From: an uncultured Actinomycetota bacterium
Lineage (GTDB): Bacteria; Actinomycetota; Humimicrobiia; Humimicrobiales; Humimicrobiaceae
Assembly (NCBI GenBank): GCA_964556165.1
Contig: CAZKVH010000005.1
Span: forward strand, 1,269-65,268
Direction: 5' to 3'
DNA length: 64,000 nucleotides
A model generated the notes under the pieces. That model had not been told where the DNA came from. It searched no databases and saw only the letters and a list, made by a program, of their open reading frames with translations. The position numbers and the translations under genes were made by a program. Position 1 is the stretch's first letter, and each line of letters begins with the position of its first letter. Shown piece by piece: positions 42,032 to 51,172 of the stretch.

Positions 42032-42484
42032 CTACTTAATTCTTCTCAGCCTGCCATTTGCGCTTGTGTGAATTGTTATATTATCTATTGAAATTATCTT
42101 TAAGAAAAAGCAGCTTATTTCTGCCTCGCAACTTACTTCTATATATTTTGGGTTATCGATGCTTTCTATTACATCGTAATCTAAATAATTTATTTTACAG
42201 CCATCTGCATCTTTATAGTTTTTATAGAAATATTCATAAATTATATCAGGATAATCATCTGCCAGTCTGTTAACACCAAGATTCTGGGCTGCTTCGATAT
42301 CGATGCACTTTGAAGCTTCTTCTGCTGCAATCATGCAGGCTTTATTTATTTCTTCTTTGTACAGGAAAGCTCTCCCTATATCAACAACAAATCCAGTTAA
42401 CAAAATAAAGATGGGCATAAGTATAGCTACCGTAATCAGTATCGAGCCTTTACTAACTTTAAGGCTAAAATTCAAACTCTTCAT
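42032..42484 (-). CDS. TadE/TadG-like Flp pseudopilin
   Basis: 150 aa with the N-terminal TadE-like hydrophobic segment (KGSILITVAILMPIFILLTGFVVDIGRAF). In the tad locus. Confidence 0.6.
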   Translation of the reverse strand: MKSLNFSLKVSKGSILITVAILMPIFILLTGFVVDIGRAFLYKEEINKACMIAAEEASKCIDIEAAQNLGVNRLADDYPDIIYEYFYKNYKDADGCKINYLDYDVIESIDNPKYIEVSCEAEISCFFLKIISIDNITIHTSANGRLRRIK

Positions 42485-43700
42485 AACTTATCCCACCAAG
42501 CCATTTACTGGCATTCAAGTCACTGCCTTCCTGTTTTACATTAATCGACCTGAAACCATTTACCGGATTGCTAAAATTTATGTGAGCGCTCTCACCATTT
42601 TGAGCAAAAAGGTAAATATGAAGCATGCTTTCCTTGCTACCACTATATTCAAACTTTGTAAGAGTATCTATACCCCCCTCGGAAGCCGGGGCTACATCTC
42701 CATCAAATATTATTACCCTCTGAACACCATTATTATTAAATCTATATATATCCTCATAAACATAAAGCCTTGCGATCTTTTTTTCTTCTTCACCTACAGA
42801 TAAATTGCTATTATCTACTTTCCAGCTTATGTTTAGCTCCATACCGCACTCGTCGCCATCATTATCTTTATGCCATCGTGTAAAAACATACTTGGGGTTC
42901 TTCTCAACTATAAGAACACCATGAAGAGGTGTTGTGTAGAATCCATCCTCAATCCATACCATCTCATATTCATAATAACTTGTATCAATCCATTCCTTTT
43001 CAGTATAATTTTCCCAGTACCCCTGAGTGACTGTATAAGAAGTATCAACCCATTTTCTACCGGTAACTGTCTTCCAGTGACTGGTATCCACCCAGTAACT
43101 TACTTTAACTGTTTGCCAGTAGCCGCTTTTTATCCATGCTTTATAAGATTCTTTTACTCTTGTCAGCTTTTCATAACATTTATATTTTATAGCATAAACC
43201 TGTCCACCATAAACTGGACGGTAATCTATAATCCACTTATTTGCATGATATTTATTGCCTTTGTAAATTATTGTATATATATTAGGCTGCTTCTTAGCAA
43301 AACCCGAATAAACTGACCAGCCATAACTATCTGTTCCTACATAAATTGTCAAATTTGTTGAAACCCATTTATCAACATCTCTGTATCTTGTTTCCCAGTG
43401 GCTCGCATCCACCCATACAGTCTTATTATAATATTCATAGTAACCACTACTCACCCATACTCTATCGGTATAATTTTCCCAGTACCCCTGAGTAATCGTA
43501 TAAGAAGTATCAACCCATCTTCTCTTCGGAGTTGTCTGCCAGTAACCATCTTCAACTTTATTCTTCTTTATCTCCCAGTGGCTAGTATCTACCCAGACTT
43601 TCTGACTTTCTGAATAAATATTAGAAGGTAACAATAAAGTTACAGATATAAGTACAAATAAAAATAATATTAACAATCGATATATAATTTTATTAGACAT
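42465..43700 (-). CDS. secreted Trp/Tyr-rich tandem-repeat protein (novel; putative pilus-associated adhesin)
   Basis: Signal peptide followed by repeated WVDTSHWE / WVDTSYTxTQGYWENYT / YYEY units. About 60-nt DNA repeats at ~43000-43070 and ~43470-43540. Confidence 0.6.
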   Translation of the reverse strand: MSNKIIYRLLILFLFVLISVTLLLPSNIYSESQKVWVDTSHWEIKKNKVEDGYWQTTPKRRWVDTSYTITQGYWENYTDRVWVSSGYYEYYNKTVWVDASHWETRYRDVDKWVSTNLTIYVGTDSYGWSVYSGFAKKQPNIYTIIYKGNKYHANKWIIDYRPVYGGQVYAIKYKCYEKLTRVKESYKAWIKSGYWQTVKVSYWVDTSHWKTVTGRKWVDTSYTVTQGYWENYTEKEWIDTSYYEYEMVWIEDGFYTTPLHGVLIVEKNPKYVFTRWHKDNDGDECGMELNISWKVDNSNLSVGEEEKKIARLYVYEDIYRFNNNGVQRVIIFDGDVAPASEGGIDTLTKFEYSGSKESMLHIYLFAQNGESAHINFSNPVNGFRSINVKQEGSDLNASKWLGGISYEEFEF

Positions 43701-43709
43701 TTACACTCC

Positions 43710-48947: not shown

Positions 48948-48978
48948 AAAAACTCCTGGTAGTAATTTGAAACCGTTG

Positions 48979-49794
48979 TCAAATTTTTTCTATCACAATT
49001 TTATAATCATCATCTTTTGTCAACCTGGCAATAATAGGAGCTTCCTTAACACTGCATTTAAGATAGACATTGATAGTATCGTAATTATTGCTTAAAAGAA
49101 CAGCTTTATTGCTGCTCGGAACATTTTTTTCTATACATATCACTTCTAGATTTCTAACCATAACCTGGCTATTAATTAAAACTATGTTTTCAGATAAATT
49201 AAACATAGTTTTATCAATATAATCTCCGCCAGCAATGAAATATCTACTTCCACTATTAGAACTACTTTTATAATAACTATCAGTTTGATCTAAATATTTA
49301 TTTTCAGCATTTTCCTCTAGTTCGAGATAATCTGAATGTAGCAAGTCTTTTTCACTTACAGTCGATACTATAGATATATAACTACCCACCTCTACCTCCT
49401 CCAGCAAAGGTTCTTGATACTTTACATCGATAGCTATTACAACATATCCTTCTTTCATATCATCAAAAAAGCTTTTATTGTTCTTTTCATCAAACATATC
49501 ATTAGAAATATAATCATCTTTTTTTCTCTCAATATTAATGGTTTTTCCAATTGCATCTTTTTTGTCTGTCATATAATTTTCAGGAAGTGAGCCTTTATAA
49601 TATTCTTTAAATTCTAAATCTCCTTCAATTACTTTCTGACCCTCTTCAATATTTTTGGAAGCAACAACTATCGCTTTCTTATCAAGATAACTATTTAGTA
49701 ATAAATAAAAAGCCAACCCTATAATAATCGAACCAATAATTGCTAATGCTAAATACTTTCTATAATAATTTCTCATTACATTCCCCTCAGTCAT
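48979..49794 (-). CDS. cpaB: Flp pilus assembly protein CpaB/RcpC (SAF domain)
   Basis: 271 aa with an N-terminal TM followed by SAF-like region (AIVVASKNIEEGQKVIEGDLEFKEY). Confidence 0.65.
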   Translation of the reverse strand: MTEGNVMRNYYRKYLALAIIGSIIIGLAFYLLLNSYLDKKAIVVASKNIEEGQKVIEGDLEFKEYYKGSLPENYMTDKKDAIGKTINIERKKDDYISNDMFDEKNNKSFFDDMKEGYVVIAIDVKYQEPLLEEVEVGSYISIVSTVSEKDLLHSDYLELEENAENKYLDQTDSYYKSSSNSGSRYFIAGGDYIDKTMFNLSENIVLINSQVMVRNLEVICIEKNVPSSNKAVLLSNNYDTINVYLKCSVKEAPIIARLTKDDDYKIVIEKI

Positions 49795-51172
49795 AAGTTA
49801 ATAAATCGAATATTTTTTCCTCCAGGTAATTAAAGCCTTTCAAATTGTTAAAATTAAAGTTTGAAAATTCTGATCTATTTCTTAGCTCTCTACTTTCGTC
49901 TACAAAAACTAAGTTCTTCAAATGAAAAAATTGCTCAGCTCGATTTTTTAAAAACCCCAATCCGTTCAGCTTGTCATATTTATTAATCACCAGAACTTTA
50001 TCTAAATCAGAACATAAAAACCTATCGTTTATATTTACAAGCCTACTAATGCTACCCAGAGTACCGTCAGAAACCATTATCAATAAATTTGCAAGATCAA
50101 TTACACCTAACGATAAATCATCTAAGTTATTTGGTAGGTCAAATATAACTAAGTGATACTTCTTTTTTGCAATATCAGCTAAAGCATATATATCCTGTAA
50201 ATCTATTTTCTTTGATAAATCATATGTAGGTGGTGCTTGCATAACATCCAGATTTTCTTTTATTTTTATAACTGAATTATCTAAAGAATCCCTATTATAT
50301 CCATCTACAAAATTCAAGATACTGGGTGACTTTGGAATATTAAAATAGTAACTTATATCTCCTCCACCTTCAGAAAAATTCAAATCAACAAGAAGAGTTT
50401 TTATTTTATTAAAAACGAAGCCTAGGAAAATAGAAATTGTGGTGCTTCCTACCCCTCCCTTAGCTTTTAGTATTATAATTATTTTCTGTTTTAACGTTCG
50501 TATCTTCTTAATTTCTATACCTGTTTCTTCCTCTAAAACATCTCCCTTCGGGGAATTTCCTTTATCTAAATCATTGTTTTCGTTTTCCTTTTTATTACTA
50601 TTCTCCTTATAAACCTCAGGCACTTCTTCATTAAAATTCTCAGCATTATATAGCCTCTCCTTATAACCTATGTCGGTTTCCTTTTTAACTCCACCTAAGC
50701 TCTTACTTTCTTTCTTCAAACTTTTATATTCATCATGTAAAATTAGTGCTTTATTCTTTTCATTATGACTTAGCAAATTACTAAAATATTTTTTAAAACT
50801 GAAGCGCCCATTTCCTTTTTTATATTCACTCTCTTCAATTTCCCTTAATATTAAATTTTCTAACTCCTTTTCGTTTAAAGGGTAATGAATATCTTCGCCC
50901 ATTACATAAATCTTTATTTTCTTTTTATTGGCTCTTTTTGTAATGCCTTGTAAATCAGATATCTTTTTACTTATTATTACGAGATTAATTTTTTCATATT
51001 CCAAAATAAAATTTACAGCAAAATTGCTACTCAAGTTTATAAAATTAAATTTATCATTTAGATTTTGTACTCTTTTAAATGTCTCATTATCACTGTCGGC
51101 CAGGATAATATTAAAAGAATCAATATTTTTAGTTGTCTTCTCTTTTGGAACAGTATATATACCCATAAGCAC
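49787..51172 (-). CDS. TadZ/CpaE-like protein: receiver-like N-domain + MinD/ParA ATPase domain with degenerate Walker A
   Basis: 461 aa. N-terminal ~120 aa has a CheY-like topology, then a low-complexity linker, then the ATPase domain. The P-loop reads KAKGGVGSTT, with Ser where the canonical KGGVGKT Lys would be. Confidence 0.65.
   Translation of the reverse strand: MLMGIYTVPKEKTTKNIDSFNIILADSDNETFKRVQNLNDKFNFINLSSNFAVNFILEYEKINLVIISKKISDLQGITKRANKKKIKIYVMGEDIHYPLNEKELENLILREIEESEYKKGNGRFSFKKYFSNLLSHNEKNKALILHDEYKSLKKESKSLGGVKKETDIGYKERLYNAENFNEEVPEVYKENSNKKENENNDLDKGNSPKGDVLEEETGIEIKKIRTLKQKIIIILKAKGGVGSTTISIFLGFVFNKIKTLLVDLNFSEGGGDISYYFNIPKSPSILNFVDGYNRDSLDNSVIKIKENLDVMQAPPTYDLSKKIDLQDIYALADIAKKKYHLVIFDLPNNLDDLSLGVIDLANLLIMVSDGTLGSISRLVNINDRFLCSDLDKVLVINKYDKLNGLGFLKNRAEQFFHLKNLVFVDESRELRNRSEFSNFNFNNLKGFNYLEEKIFDLLTYD

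Follow-up and report, generated by a model that had tools for sequence, protein, structure and literature searches.

The window analysed here, a stretch of 64,000 nucleotides, comes from an uncultured low-GC actinobacterium of the class Humimicrobiia (Actinomycetota); named relatives of the locus described below fall in two families of the order Humimicrobiales. Between positions 42032 and 51172 its minus strand carries 11 co-directional open reading frames, separated by short gaps or overlapping, that encode in order a TadZ-like protein, CpaB, a ParA/MinD ATPase, TadA/CpaF, TadB, TadC, Flp, TadE, a 205-aa protein, a 411-aa protein and a TadE/G-like protein (Table 1). A Tad/Flp (type IVc) pilus cluster in this order had been proposed from the sequence without database searches, and family assignments of the reading frames by Pfam and NCBIfam bear it out. 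The closest relatives of the cluster all belong to Actinomycetota, a generally monoderm phylum, and a monoderm envelope is assumed for the uncultured host from its phylum.

Table 1. Features of the Tad locus and its surroundings (positions in the window)
Feature	Position	Strand	Evidence or description
HTH antitoxin	41339-41608	-	PF01381 8.6e-14
Toxin, Gp49/HigB-like	41616-41978	-	PF05973 5e-21
Third pilin-like protein (TadG/TadF-like), 150 aa, last operon gene	42032..42484	-	weak TadE/Tad matches
411-aa protein	42465..43700	-	no Pfam, NCBIfam or PADLOC family
205-aa protein	43710..44327	-	no Pfam, NCBIfam or PADLOC family
TadE pseudopilin, 141 aa	44436..44861	-	PF07811 6.7e-15, NF041390
Flp prepilin, 56 aa	44938..45108	-	PF04964 2.6e-5
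TadC platform protein, 278 aa	45193..46029	-	PF00482 7.4e-13
TadB platform protein, 268 aa	46026..46832	-	PF00482 1e-11
TadA/CpaF secretion ATPase, 400 aa from TTG	46934..48136	-	PF00437 2.9e-34
Second ParA/MinD-family ATPase, 280 aa	48105..48947	-	PF01656 1.2e-8, PF13614 4.4e-8
CpaB/RcpC-like protein, 271 aa	48979..49794	-	PF13144 4.7e-6, PF08666 1.6e-4 (SAF/ChapFlgA)
TadZ/CpaE-like protein, 461 aa from GTG	49787..51172	-	weak AAA_31/CbiA/MinD/Ssd matches
Sigma-70-type promoter of Tad operon	51212..51240	-	promoter scan: TTGACA, 17 nt, TATTCT
Phd/YefM-fold protein, 103 aa from ATG 51359	51359..51670	+	PF02604 1.6e-7, TIGR01552
Variable segment between Phd-like gene and PFK	51700..60390	.	

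Products of the operon

The first gene product, probably started at ATG 51166 to give 459 aa, had been read as CpaE-like with a receiver (REC) domain. Its CpaE-like (TadZ) identity holds, since the C-terminal half is of ParA/MinD type, if weakly matched, and a profile search gave PDB entry 3ea0 as the best match (2.4e-10), but the REC label has no support from sequence: the N-terminal domain (~100 aa, residues ~18-115), which is conserved and shows an alternating beta/alpha pattern, has neither a receiver-domain match nor a PDB sequence match. An alignment of 19 orthologues showed that a variable, low-complexity linker (~115-225) separates the two domains and that K238-G-G-V-G-x-T is invariant, within a degenerate Walker A, KGGVGST, from which the lysine has been lost. 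The second ATPase is a paralogue (30% identity, 3e-14) without the N-terminal domain; it has the canonical deviant Walker A KGGVGKTS, matches FleN/MinD-type proteins in the PDB, and is kept in all related loci. The CpaB-like protein combines an N-terminal membrane anchor with a SAF domain (TIGR03177 2.9e-5, weak and under the model cut-off), and by homology would belong to an alignment subcomplex at the external membrane surface; PMC13170226 describes what CpaB, CpaE and the minor pilins do. TadA would be 394 aa long if started at ATG 48118, the start called in public data; it matches TIGR03819 at 1.6e-55, under the model cut-off, and its homologues carry the source names CpaF/TadA. The tadC and tadB genes overlap by 4 nt.

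Three pilin-like proteins follow. Flp scores below the gathering score of its family (PF04964, 24.3 against 32.2 bits), and among 18 orthologues G17, T19, L20, E22, A24, L25 and Y26 are invariant (motif G/xTLIE); cleavage is predicted after G17, which would leave a mature pilin of 39 aa starting TTLIEIALY. In TadE the leader ends at G11 and a glutamate stands at +5 (G/xxxxE), both G11 and E16 being invariant. The last gene had been called TadE/TadG-like, and matches lying just below cut-off agree (PF07811 1.1e-4, 22.7 bits against 22.9; PF13400 8.3e-4, 20.1 bits). In an alignment of 11 orthologues of its product G13 is invariant and precedes a hydrophobic segment, but there is no glutamate at +5; the gene overlaps that of the 411-aa protein by 20 nt.

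The 205-aa and 411-aa proteins, encoded between the minor-pilin genes, had been described as two unusual inserted genes. They are indeed without a family match, and they are conserved in place. In the smaller protein an N-terminal transmembrane helix (2-25) and a second helix (28-44) are joined through an acidic linker to a compact all-beta domain (55-203); its 97 homologues come exclusively from the host lineage, and its gene keeps its position in most related loci, being missing in three (L009, L024 and L048). The larger one begins with a transmembrane helix or signal (residues 2-23), continues with two sets of repeats that form long, Trp-rich beta-hairpins (residues 35-256; WVDTSHWE.../GYWE...), and ends in an Ig-like beta-sandwich (~260-411) that recurs in larger proteins, two of them with Peptidase_M23. 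A word search found 169 homologues, and only 75 representatives at E<=1e-3 occur among 1.84 billion proteins. AlphaFold2 models reached a mean pLDDT of 87 and 81, respectively; Foldseek searches of the PDB gave a best match of only E 0.2 for the 205-aa model and none better than E 0.01 for the 411-aa model. Both are conserved, lineage-restricted, membrane-anchored and beta-rich proteins without a known fold match. Position, topology and conservation indicate that they are most likely extracytoplasmic parts of the machine, where they could serve as an adhesin or tip module or help the fibre to pass the cell wall.

The absence of a secretin and of tadV from the window, already remarked from the sequence, was confirmed: Pfam scans of window ORFs of at least about 100 aa not nested in a longer ORF (essentially all) found neither a secretin nor a prepilin peptidase (Peptidase_A24), and a six-frame scan of the window found no GxGD[x]K aspartyl-peptidase motif in a membrane protein. 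Nor was a prepilin peptidase found in 435 kb of related loci, and processing therefore rests on an unseen gene. Known monoderm Tad systems are without a secretin, and tadV can lie elsewhere, as in Bifidobacterium breve (PMC6916266).

Control region and junctions

The Tad promoter sits in an AT-rich, divergent control region of ~190 bp (51167-51358) that also contains conserved palindromic AT blocks (inverted repeats). In an alignment of 14 species TATTGACA, the hexamer TATTCT/TATCCT and then ATTAAAACA are invariant or nearly so. On the other side of this region stands the Phd-like gene, which scores above the gathering score (PF02604, 31.4 bits) and has an AAAGGAG ribosome-binding site before ATG 51359, the mechanical ORF start being 51323; a terminator-like hairpin lies downstream (51895-51919). 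It has no toxin partner and had been taken for an orphan regulator, but it is a conserved neighbour of the operon: at least 14 related loci keep it in the same place, likewise divergent, with 43-80% identity. This position and conservation make the Phd-fold protein a candidate regulator of the locus, one that probably acts on the shared control region.

The two junctions beyond are variable. Downstream of the operon, the toxin-antitoxin pair (41339..41978) has its own promoter-like site (TTGAAA, 17 nt, TATAAT at 42005-41977); some relatives have it, L004 and L010 carry an AbiEii pair instead, and others lack it. The toxin-antitoxin pair is a variable neighbour outside the pilus system. On the far side, the segment 51700..60390 holds a 404-aa gene and genes for HAD, CBS, a Na/H exchanger, an ARMT1-like protein, a PKD/Big_9 membrane protein and an aldo-keto reductase. 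It has no terminal direct repeats and is missing in five loci (L007, L008, L009, L027 and L030), where PFK adjoins the Phd/Tad block. The 404-aa gene, earlier labelled TIR-like, matches no family or sequence searched. Of the core genes proposed as borders, the UDG side is conserved, but the HAD gene (53.5 kb) does not mark a conserved border. Both the toxin-antitoxin pair and the segment were inserted later at the operon junctions; the features that looked island-like (this pair, the low-GC flank and the 404-aa gene) belong to variable insertions at the two junctions of a conserved operon.

Inheritance of the locus

The sequence-only reading had joined the Tad locus, the toxin-antitoxin pair, the 404-aa gene and the Phd-like gene into a horizontally acquired adhesion island differing between close relatives. 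Comparison of the block with its flanks showed a real dip in composition (GC 0.313 in the Tad genes against 0.380 elsewhere, GC3 0.276 against 0.350), toxin-antitoxin modules and strain-specific genes adjoin the locus, and Tad systems are reported to transfer often (PMC6668835). In L061 (UDG 78% identical) there are toxin-antitoxin remnants only and no Tad genes within 10 kb upstream of UDG, the block being lost or displaced beside an integrase-bearing insert. However, the same gene order was found in 26 species-level Actinomycetota MAGs (TadA 61-84% identical) and in several metagenome contigs. Wherever flanks are visible the operon lies between GatB/PFK and lipoprotein-UDG-TsaE-TsaB-TsaD-GroESL, order and site being shared by 26/26 recovered species-level genomes, and its position between GatCAB-PFK and the lipoprotein-UDG side is kept down to 61-68% TadA identity. 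In a test anchored on UDG and independent of the Tad genes, 8 of 10 same-lineage loci carried the operon. The exceptions are L061 and L050, the latter a more distant branch with other genes at the site.

Tad proteins also diverge in parallel with the core flanks: in L004, L007, L008 and L009 TadA is 84, 75, 73 and 68% identical and UDG 82, 79, 70 and 70%, with PFK at 82, 73 and 69% in the three where it is visible. The low GC is common to 7 of 9 relatives examined and is therefore old, the Phd-like gene and promoter region are conserved together with the operon, and neither an integrase (Pfam scans), a tRNA nor bounding repeats were found in the window, as had been noticed before. With the block present in relatives and its composition shared, save for the exceptions L061 and L050, recent acquisition of the Tad locus is largely refuted, and there is only a very slight chance that the island proposal holds.

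A much older event seems unlikely as well, in which a low-GC donor passed the block to the ancestor of the Humimicrobiales clade, with vertical descent thereafter and the foreign composition kept. The stable GC deficit of roughly 0.07-0.13 against flanks in the 7 of 9 relatives, the other genes at the site in L050 and the spread of Tad systems by transfer (PMC6668835) would fit it. Foreign composition, however, should ameliorate over such divergence (TadA down to 61%), and the deficit is missing in the two most divergent loci, L009 and L024, and strongest elsewhere, a pattern in keeping with drift or selection within particular lineages. A lower GC can also persist without transfer in membrane and low-expression genes that are AT-rich and Lys/Asn/Ile-rich. 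No donor was found, and among the matches listed the TadA homologues with a source name are all from Actinomycetota except one MAG labelled Methanosarcinales. The Tad operon is an old, vertically inherited chromosomal locus beside which only small adjoining modules vary. Taken together, 42032-51172 is read, with a probability of about 0.85, as one chromosomal operon for a secretin-less type IVc (Tad/Flp) pilus, ancestral to the clade, with junction segments inserted later.

Proposed machine and known Tad systems

By analogy with Tad systems that have been characterised, Flp and TadE would be cleaved by a prepilin peptidase whose gene lies elsewhere, and a TadA hexamer would power the TadB/TadC platform for polymerisation of the 39-residue Flp. 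Around TadA, the TadZ-like protein and its paralogue, which is catalytically intact, may build a ring or positioning module in the cytoplasm; CpaB, anchored in the membrane, may form an alignment cage outside it, and TadE with the TadG-like protein would prime the fibre. A secretin would be unneeded in the absence of an outer membrane.

The locus closely resembles the monoderm type IVc tad locus of B. breve UCC2003, in which tadZ, tadA, tadB, tadC, a small Flp and two minor pilins are likewise clustered without a secretin and the prepilin peptidase gene lies at a separate locus (PMC6916266). [quoted passage not shown] Micrococcus luteus, also an actinobacterium, likewise has a Tfpc without a secretin and with a small Flp pilin, and its Flp pili are needed for natural transformation (PMC6916266). 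A fibre serving mainly DNA uptake in the same way, or another non-adhesive task, is quite improbable here, even though the locus has nothing that specifies adhesion: no comEA, comEC or dprA was found in the window (Pfam scans) or in the related loci inspected, and M. luteus has duplicated loci with TadG reported in place of TadZ (PMC6916266), whereas one locus with TadZ-like proteins lies in the window; sequence cannot settle function.

With the diderm cpa and tad systems of Caulobacter crescentus and Aggregatibacter actinomycetemcomitans, the secretin-less operon shares the CpaF/TadA motor, paired platform proteins, a CpaE/TadZ with deviant Walker A, a CpaB/RcpC alignment protein, a Flp-type pilin and fibre-priming TadE-type minor pilins (PMC13170226; PMC6916266). 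It differs from them in having no secretin (CpaC/RcpA), pilotin (CpaD/TadD), CpaI or RcpB, no tadV/cpaA in the cluster, a TadG/CpaL-like protein of only 150 aa without a vWA domain, and two ParA-type paralogues instead of one. Compared with 3ea0 and the TadZ of Eubacterium rectale, the TadZ-like protein is set apart by its unmatched N-terminal domain (receiver-domain and PDB sequence searches) and by the long low-complexity linker between its two domains. Deposited as a ParA-family ATPase, 3ea0 is a Chlorobium tepidum protein that we take to be of TadZ type, and both proteins have a Walker A without the canonical lysine, KGGVGST here and KGGDGGS in 3ea0.

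Gene content and family assignments

The minus strand of the Tad region is filled by 11 co-directional ORFs with short gaps or overlaps between them (overlaps of 8 nt between the genes for the 461-aa TadZ-like protein and CpaB, 32 nt as listed between those for the ParA-like protein and TadA, 4 nt between tadB and tadC, and 20 nt between the genes for the 411-aa and 150-aa proteins), and assignments in Pfam and NCBIfam bore out the gene list and order of the sequence-only reading. A TadA/CpaF-type secretion ATPase is present (PF00437 at 2.9e-34), for which the top NCBIfam model is the TadA family TIGR03819 (1.6e-55, under its equivalog cut-off) and whose homologues carry the source names CpaF/TadA. 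Public gene calls begin TadA at a downstream ATG, which makes it 394 aa long in place of 400. There are two paralogous platform proteins, the adjacent and overlapping TadB and TadC (PF00482 at 1e-11 and 7.4e-13), a pair that is a feature specific to Tfpc (PMC6916266). CpaB is a SAF-type protein, and the 280-aa gene encodes a ParA/MinD ATPase. When each window ORF of at least about 100 aa not nested in a longer ORF was scanned with Pfam, none matched Secretin (RcpA/CpaC), nor did any called gene of the related loci, in keeping with a Tad system of the monoderm type; monoderm Tad systems have lost the secretin (PMC6668835). The family assignments, with no Secretin match in the window ORFs, support the identification of a secretin-less Tad locus that appears to have all core features of a Tad/Flp (type IVc) pilus. 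The observation that tadV does not lie in the window also held: no scanned window ORF matched Peptidase_A24 (PF01478), and a six-frame scan for the aspartyl-peptidase motif GxGDxK found none in a membrane protein, whether across the window or over 435 kb of sequence from related loci. This does not exclude Tad membership, because Bifidobacterium breve encodes its peptidase elsewhere.

The Flp precursor has 56 aa and matches PF04964 at 2.6e-5, with 24.3 bits against a gathering score of 32.2 that it does not reach. Among 18 orthologues Gly17 is invariant and is followed by (A/S/T)TLIE(I/M)ALY, in which Glu+5 is also invariant and the tyrosine stands at +9, not at the +6 of the G/XXXXEY motif; cleavage after Gly17 is predicted, giving a mature pilin of 39 residues. 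TadE (PF07811 at 6.7e-15) has invariant G11 and E16 (G/xxxxE), the same class III pattern as Flp. The 150-aa TadG-like protein, which is short and without a vWA domain, falls just under the TadE cut-off (22.7 bits against 22.9) and the Tad (TadE/G-like) cut-off; its invariant G13 is followed by a hydrophobic stretch but Glu is lacking at +5, so that it resembles the N-terminus of TadG/CpaL more than a processed pseudopilin.

Across 19 aligned orthologues the 461-aa protein falls into three parts. About 100 conserved residues at the N-terminus make up a domain in which beta and alpha segments alternate; a linker of low complexity and variable sequence follows; and the C-terminal domain bears an invariant KGGVG-x-T (KGGVGST here), its Walker A lysine being replaced. 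The C-terminal half is weakly ParA/MinD-like, with a weak TIGR03815 match (Pfam/NCBIfam), and a profile of the 461-aa alignment matched the ParA-family ATPase 3ea0 at 2.4e-10, itself also without the Walker A lysine. Downstream of the 461-aa and CpaB genes, the 280-aa protein is a paralogue of this C-terminal domain (30% identity, 3e-14) and retains a canonical KGGVGKTS. TadZ has been described as a ParA/FleN-type protein (PMC6668835), and TadZ/CpaE as combining a ParA/MinD-type domain having an atypical Walker A with an atypical receiver domain (PMC13170226). The receiver label first put on the 461-aa protein found no backing, since its N-terminal domain gave no match to a receiver by hhalign against CheY and no match in a PDB profile search or a Pfam scan (13 orthologues); by position, the domain may correspond to the atypical receiver domain of TadZ/CpaE. 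Outside the operon, directly downstream of groEL, lies a third ParA/MinD-family gene (298 aa, CbiA 5.9e-12).

Synteny, composition and variable junctions

The sequence-only reading took the Tad block for the core of an apparent accessory island, typical of horizontal acquisition. Its compositional dip is real, with GC of 0.313 against 0.380 in the rest of the window and GC3 of 0.276 against 0.350, and the remark that no integrase, tRNA or flanking repeats mark the borders was upheld by a search for direct repeats bounding the 51.6-60.4 kb segment, by a tRNA search that found none in the window and by Pfam scans that found no integrase there. The GC and GC3 deficit is shared by seven of nine relatives, often in stronger form (in L008, one of these related loci, GC3 is 0.20 against 0.40), and only the two most divergent of those examined (L009 and L024) do not show it; this points to a long-standing property of the locus and not to a recent arrival. 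Ancient transfer, expression level or binding of an AT-preferring silencer could account for it.

The whole block is found in the same order on contigs with TadA 84, 75, 74 and 68% identical, and likewise in 26 species-representative genomes (TadA 61-84%). The visible flanks are LigA-Rce1-GatCAB-PFK on one side and lipoprotein-UDG-TsaE-TsaB-TsaD-GroES-GroEL on the other. In the related loci L004, L007, L008 and L009, respectively, TadA is 84, 75, 73 and 68% identical, UDG 82, 79, 70 and 70%, and TsaD 76, 74, 74 and 67%, with PFK at 82, 73 and 69% in the last three, where it is visible; the divergence of the Tad proteins keeps pace with that of the housekeeping proteins encoded beside them. The nearest TadA homologues, at 61-100% identity, come from metagenome-assembled Actinomycetota. 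Named sources are 'Ca. Hydromicrobium' and 'Ca. Humimicrobiaceae', which represent two families of Humimicrobiales, an order in the class Humimicrobiia. Because sampling by TadA cannot see genomes without the locus, a second test was anchored on UDG, using ten same-lineage loci on metagenome contigs with UDG at least 60% identical and at least 2.6 kb of upstream sequence. Tad genes lie immediately upstream of UDG in eight of the ten; L050, of a more distant branch, has DoxX-like and Rrf2-like genes in their place, and in L061 (UDG 78%) the 10 kb upstream of UDG contain no Tad gene. The operon, then, is ancestral; it has been kept in most cases and lost occasionally. What had been expected as presence/absence variation among relatives comes down to a single case of loss or replacement (L061) and a distant branch that lacks the block (L050), the block being otherwise present at a conserved site.

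Variation is found at the junctions. The toxin-antitoxin (TA) pair has its own promoter-like site and is present in some relatives and absent in others, its place being taken by an AbiEii pair in the 84% relative. In related locus L052 an insert of six genes, about 6.5 kb long, separates the TA pair from the lipoprotein/UDG genes, which marks the TA-side junction as an insertion hot spot. In L061 all that is left of the TA pair is 16 codons from the end of the Gp49 toxin gene and 38 from the start of the HTH antitoxin gene, with an LVIVD-repeat protein upstream and, after the remnants, an insert of about 6 kb that encodes a phage-integrase-family protein, Zn-ribbon proteins and an Ada-Zn-binding protein; this arrangement could reflect operon loss or displacement, or mis-assembly. 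Between the Tad/TA region and UDG lies the gene for a predicted lipoprotein of 142 aa (motif LIGGCSQ, no family), which is kept on the opposite strand in nearly all relatives at 35-65% identity.

On the other side, the seven-gene segment between the Phd-like gene and PFK is missing in L007, L008, L009, L027 and L030, where PFK abuts the Phd/Tad block, and is only partly common to the 84% relative (ARMT1, 78% identical). No mobility genes were found in this segment, and a search for direct repeats bounding it gave only chance-level matches and an internal Glu-codon repeat. Its PKD/Big_9 membrane protein has a Glu-rich low-complexity stretch of imperfect GAA/GAG repeats. The HAD gene, earlier placed as a core border, lies inside this segment, missing from five relatives, and so is not one. 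The 404-aa gene is found only in the same-strain contigs (L001-L003). Scans of its product against Pfam (E<=1), PADLOC and PDB sequences (E<=10) were empty, and the label 'TIR-like' has no support from sequence. With the block at the same site in 26 genomes found by TadA and in eight of ten loci found by UDG, the island reading is replaced by that of an ancestral syntenic operon with insertion-prone junctions. The value of the result is mostly corrective, in that a low-GC, TA-flanked block looked like an island and yet is ancestral and syntenic.

The rest of the window is made up of housekeeping genes, those for PPDK, GlyQS, RecO, Era, YbeY, PhoH, DnaJ, HrcA, ThiC, PcrA, GuaA/GuaB, GroESL, TsaEBD, PFK and GatAB. 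A TPP riboswitch (67 bits, over its gathering score) stands upstream of thiE.

Coordinates of features in the window and in two related loci
Feature	Coordinates	Strand	Sequence	Content or position
TPP riboswitch	21844-21952	+	window	
thiE	22092-22745		window	behind riboswitch
thiC	22863-24143		window	behind riboswitch
AIR-synthase-related gene			window	behind riboswitch
Third ParA/MinD-family gene	33763-34659	-	window	
Lipoprotein gene	40560-40988	+	window	
TA pair	41339-41978		window	Gp49/HigB-like toxin, HTH antitoxin
Tad operon	42032-51172	-	window	
150-aa gene	42032-42484	-	window	
411-aa gene	42465-43700	-	window	
205-aa gene	43710-44327	-	window	
Putative Tad operon promoter	51240 to 51212	-	window	
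Phd-like gene	51359-51670	+	window	most likely start at ATG 51359
Variable segment	51700-60390		window	404-aa, HAD, CBS, Na/H exchanger, ARMT1-like, PKD/Big_9 membrane protein, aldo-keto reductase
404-aa gene	52046-53260	-	window	
PKD/Big_9 membrane protein gene	57875-59209	+	window	
GAA/GAG repeats	57989-58173		window	within PKD/Big_9 gene
Six-gene insert	3765-9317		L052	
Region with TA remnants	3497-9831		L061 (JABUBP010000223.1)	
Phage-integrase-family gene	6777-7367		L061	

Control region and the two lineage-specific proteins

The Phd-like gene encodes a Phd domain (PF02604, over gathering score) and most likely begins at an ATG behind AAAGGAG, giving 103 aa as in public gene calls. It had been called an orphan, but is a conserved divergent neighbour of the Tad operon: at least 14 loci have it in this place, with identities of 43-80%. 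No toxin ORF follows it, and in relatives the gene stands alone between PFK and the Tad operon; a type II TA module (Phd/YefM-Doc or YoeB) was considered and set aside, there being no adjacent toxin gene. The 190-bp intergenic region between the Phd-like gene and the Tad operon is strongly conserved among 14 species, in which TATTGACA, a TATTCT/TATCCT hexamer 17 nt downstream of it, and ATTAAAACA directly after the hexamer are all invariant or nearly so, and conserved AT-rich palindromic blocks lie upstream of these promoter elements. The elements are read as a putative Tad operon promoter with operator-like sites, and the Phd-fold protein is a candidate regulator of this control region. Across at least two families the operon is accompanied by a Phd-fold gene without a toxin and by a promoter that is strongly conserved, which may be of interest to pilus specialists.

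The 205-aa and 411-aa genes, between TadE and the 150-aa gene, have a conserved position in most of the clade; three related loci (L009, L024 and L048) lack the 205-aa gene. Neither protein belongs to a family in Pfam, NCBIfam or PADLOC, including any PADLOC defence family, and homologues (97 for the 205-aa and 169 for the 411-aa protein) are restricted to this lineage; a profile search with the 411-aa protein against 1.84 billion representatives returned only 75 proteins at E<=1e-3. From family alignments AlphaFold2 gave models of good confidence for both. In that of the 205-aa protein (mean pLDDT 87), a TM helix and another helix are followed by an acidic, disordered linker and then by a compact domain that is all beta. 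In that of the 411-aa protein (mean pLDDT 81), the N-terminus is helical, long Trp-rich beta-hairpins come next in two sets, and the C-terminus folds as an Ig-like sandwich. Foldseek against the PDB gave no credible match for either model. Two proteins from the 411-aa profile search, P0382 (902 aa) and P0385 (830 aa), both end in Peptidase_M23, and the occurrence of this peptidase in proteins that share the 411-aa C-terminal domain hints weakly that the shared domain is a module of the envelope or cell wall.

The 205-aa and 411-aa proteins have no Gly-preceded class III leader and so are not pilins. In other type IV systems, non-pilin tip proteins are encoded between minor-pilin genes, and the similar placement of these two genes favours an extracytoplasmic role. 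From position, topology and conservation, we favour the reading that both are extracytoplasmic parts of the machine, either a tip/adhesin module or an aid in crossing the wall. A fuller reading is doubtful, with a chance of roughly one in four: that the two proteins, perhaps with the TadG-like pilin, would form an undescribed extracytoplasmic module of a monoderm Tad system, as a tip complex (adhesion in trans) or as a wall-associated conduit, and that the Phd-fold protein would be a dedicated, toxin-less pilus regulator. If true, the module would touch on an open question, the passage of type IV fibres through the monoderm wall.

Comparison with known Tad systems

Type IVc pili that do without a secretin are established for Actinobacteria (PMC6916266), and since such Tad loci are already known in Actinomycetota, the locus itself is ordinary. 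[quoted passage not shown] In the Caulobacter structure determined in situ, CpaB forms an alignment cage, CpaE dimers form a ring around CpaF, and the minor pilins with CpaL form a priming or tip complex (PMC13170226). In contrast to the minimal monoderm set, the locus described here keeps CpaB, has two ParA-type paralogues and a short TadG-like protein that lacks a vWA domain, and carries in addition two envelope proteins specific to the lineage, together with a Phd-fold neighbour. The locus adds some lineage-specific accessory parts to an already known kind of system. This deep-branching, uncultured class retains more monoderm Tad parts than the minimal machine of B. breve, with CpaB, two ParA-type paralogues and two conserved envelope proteins without a fold match, and this may also interest those who study pili.
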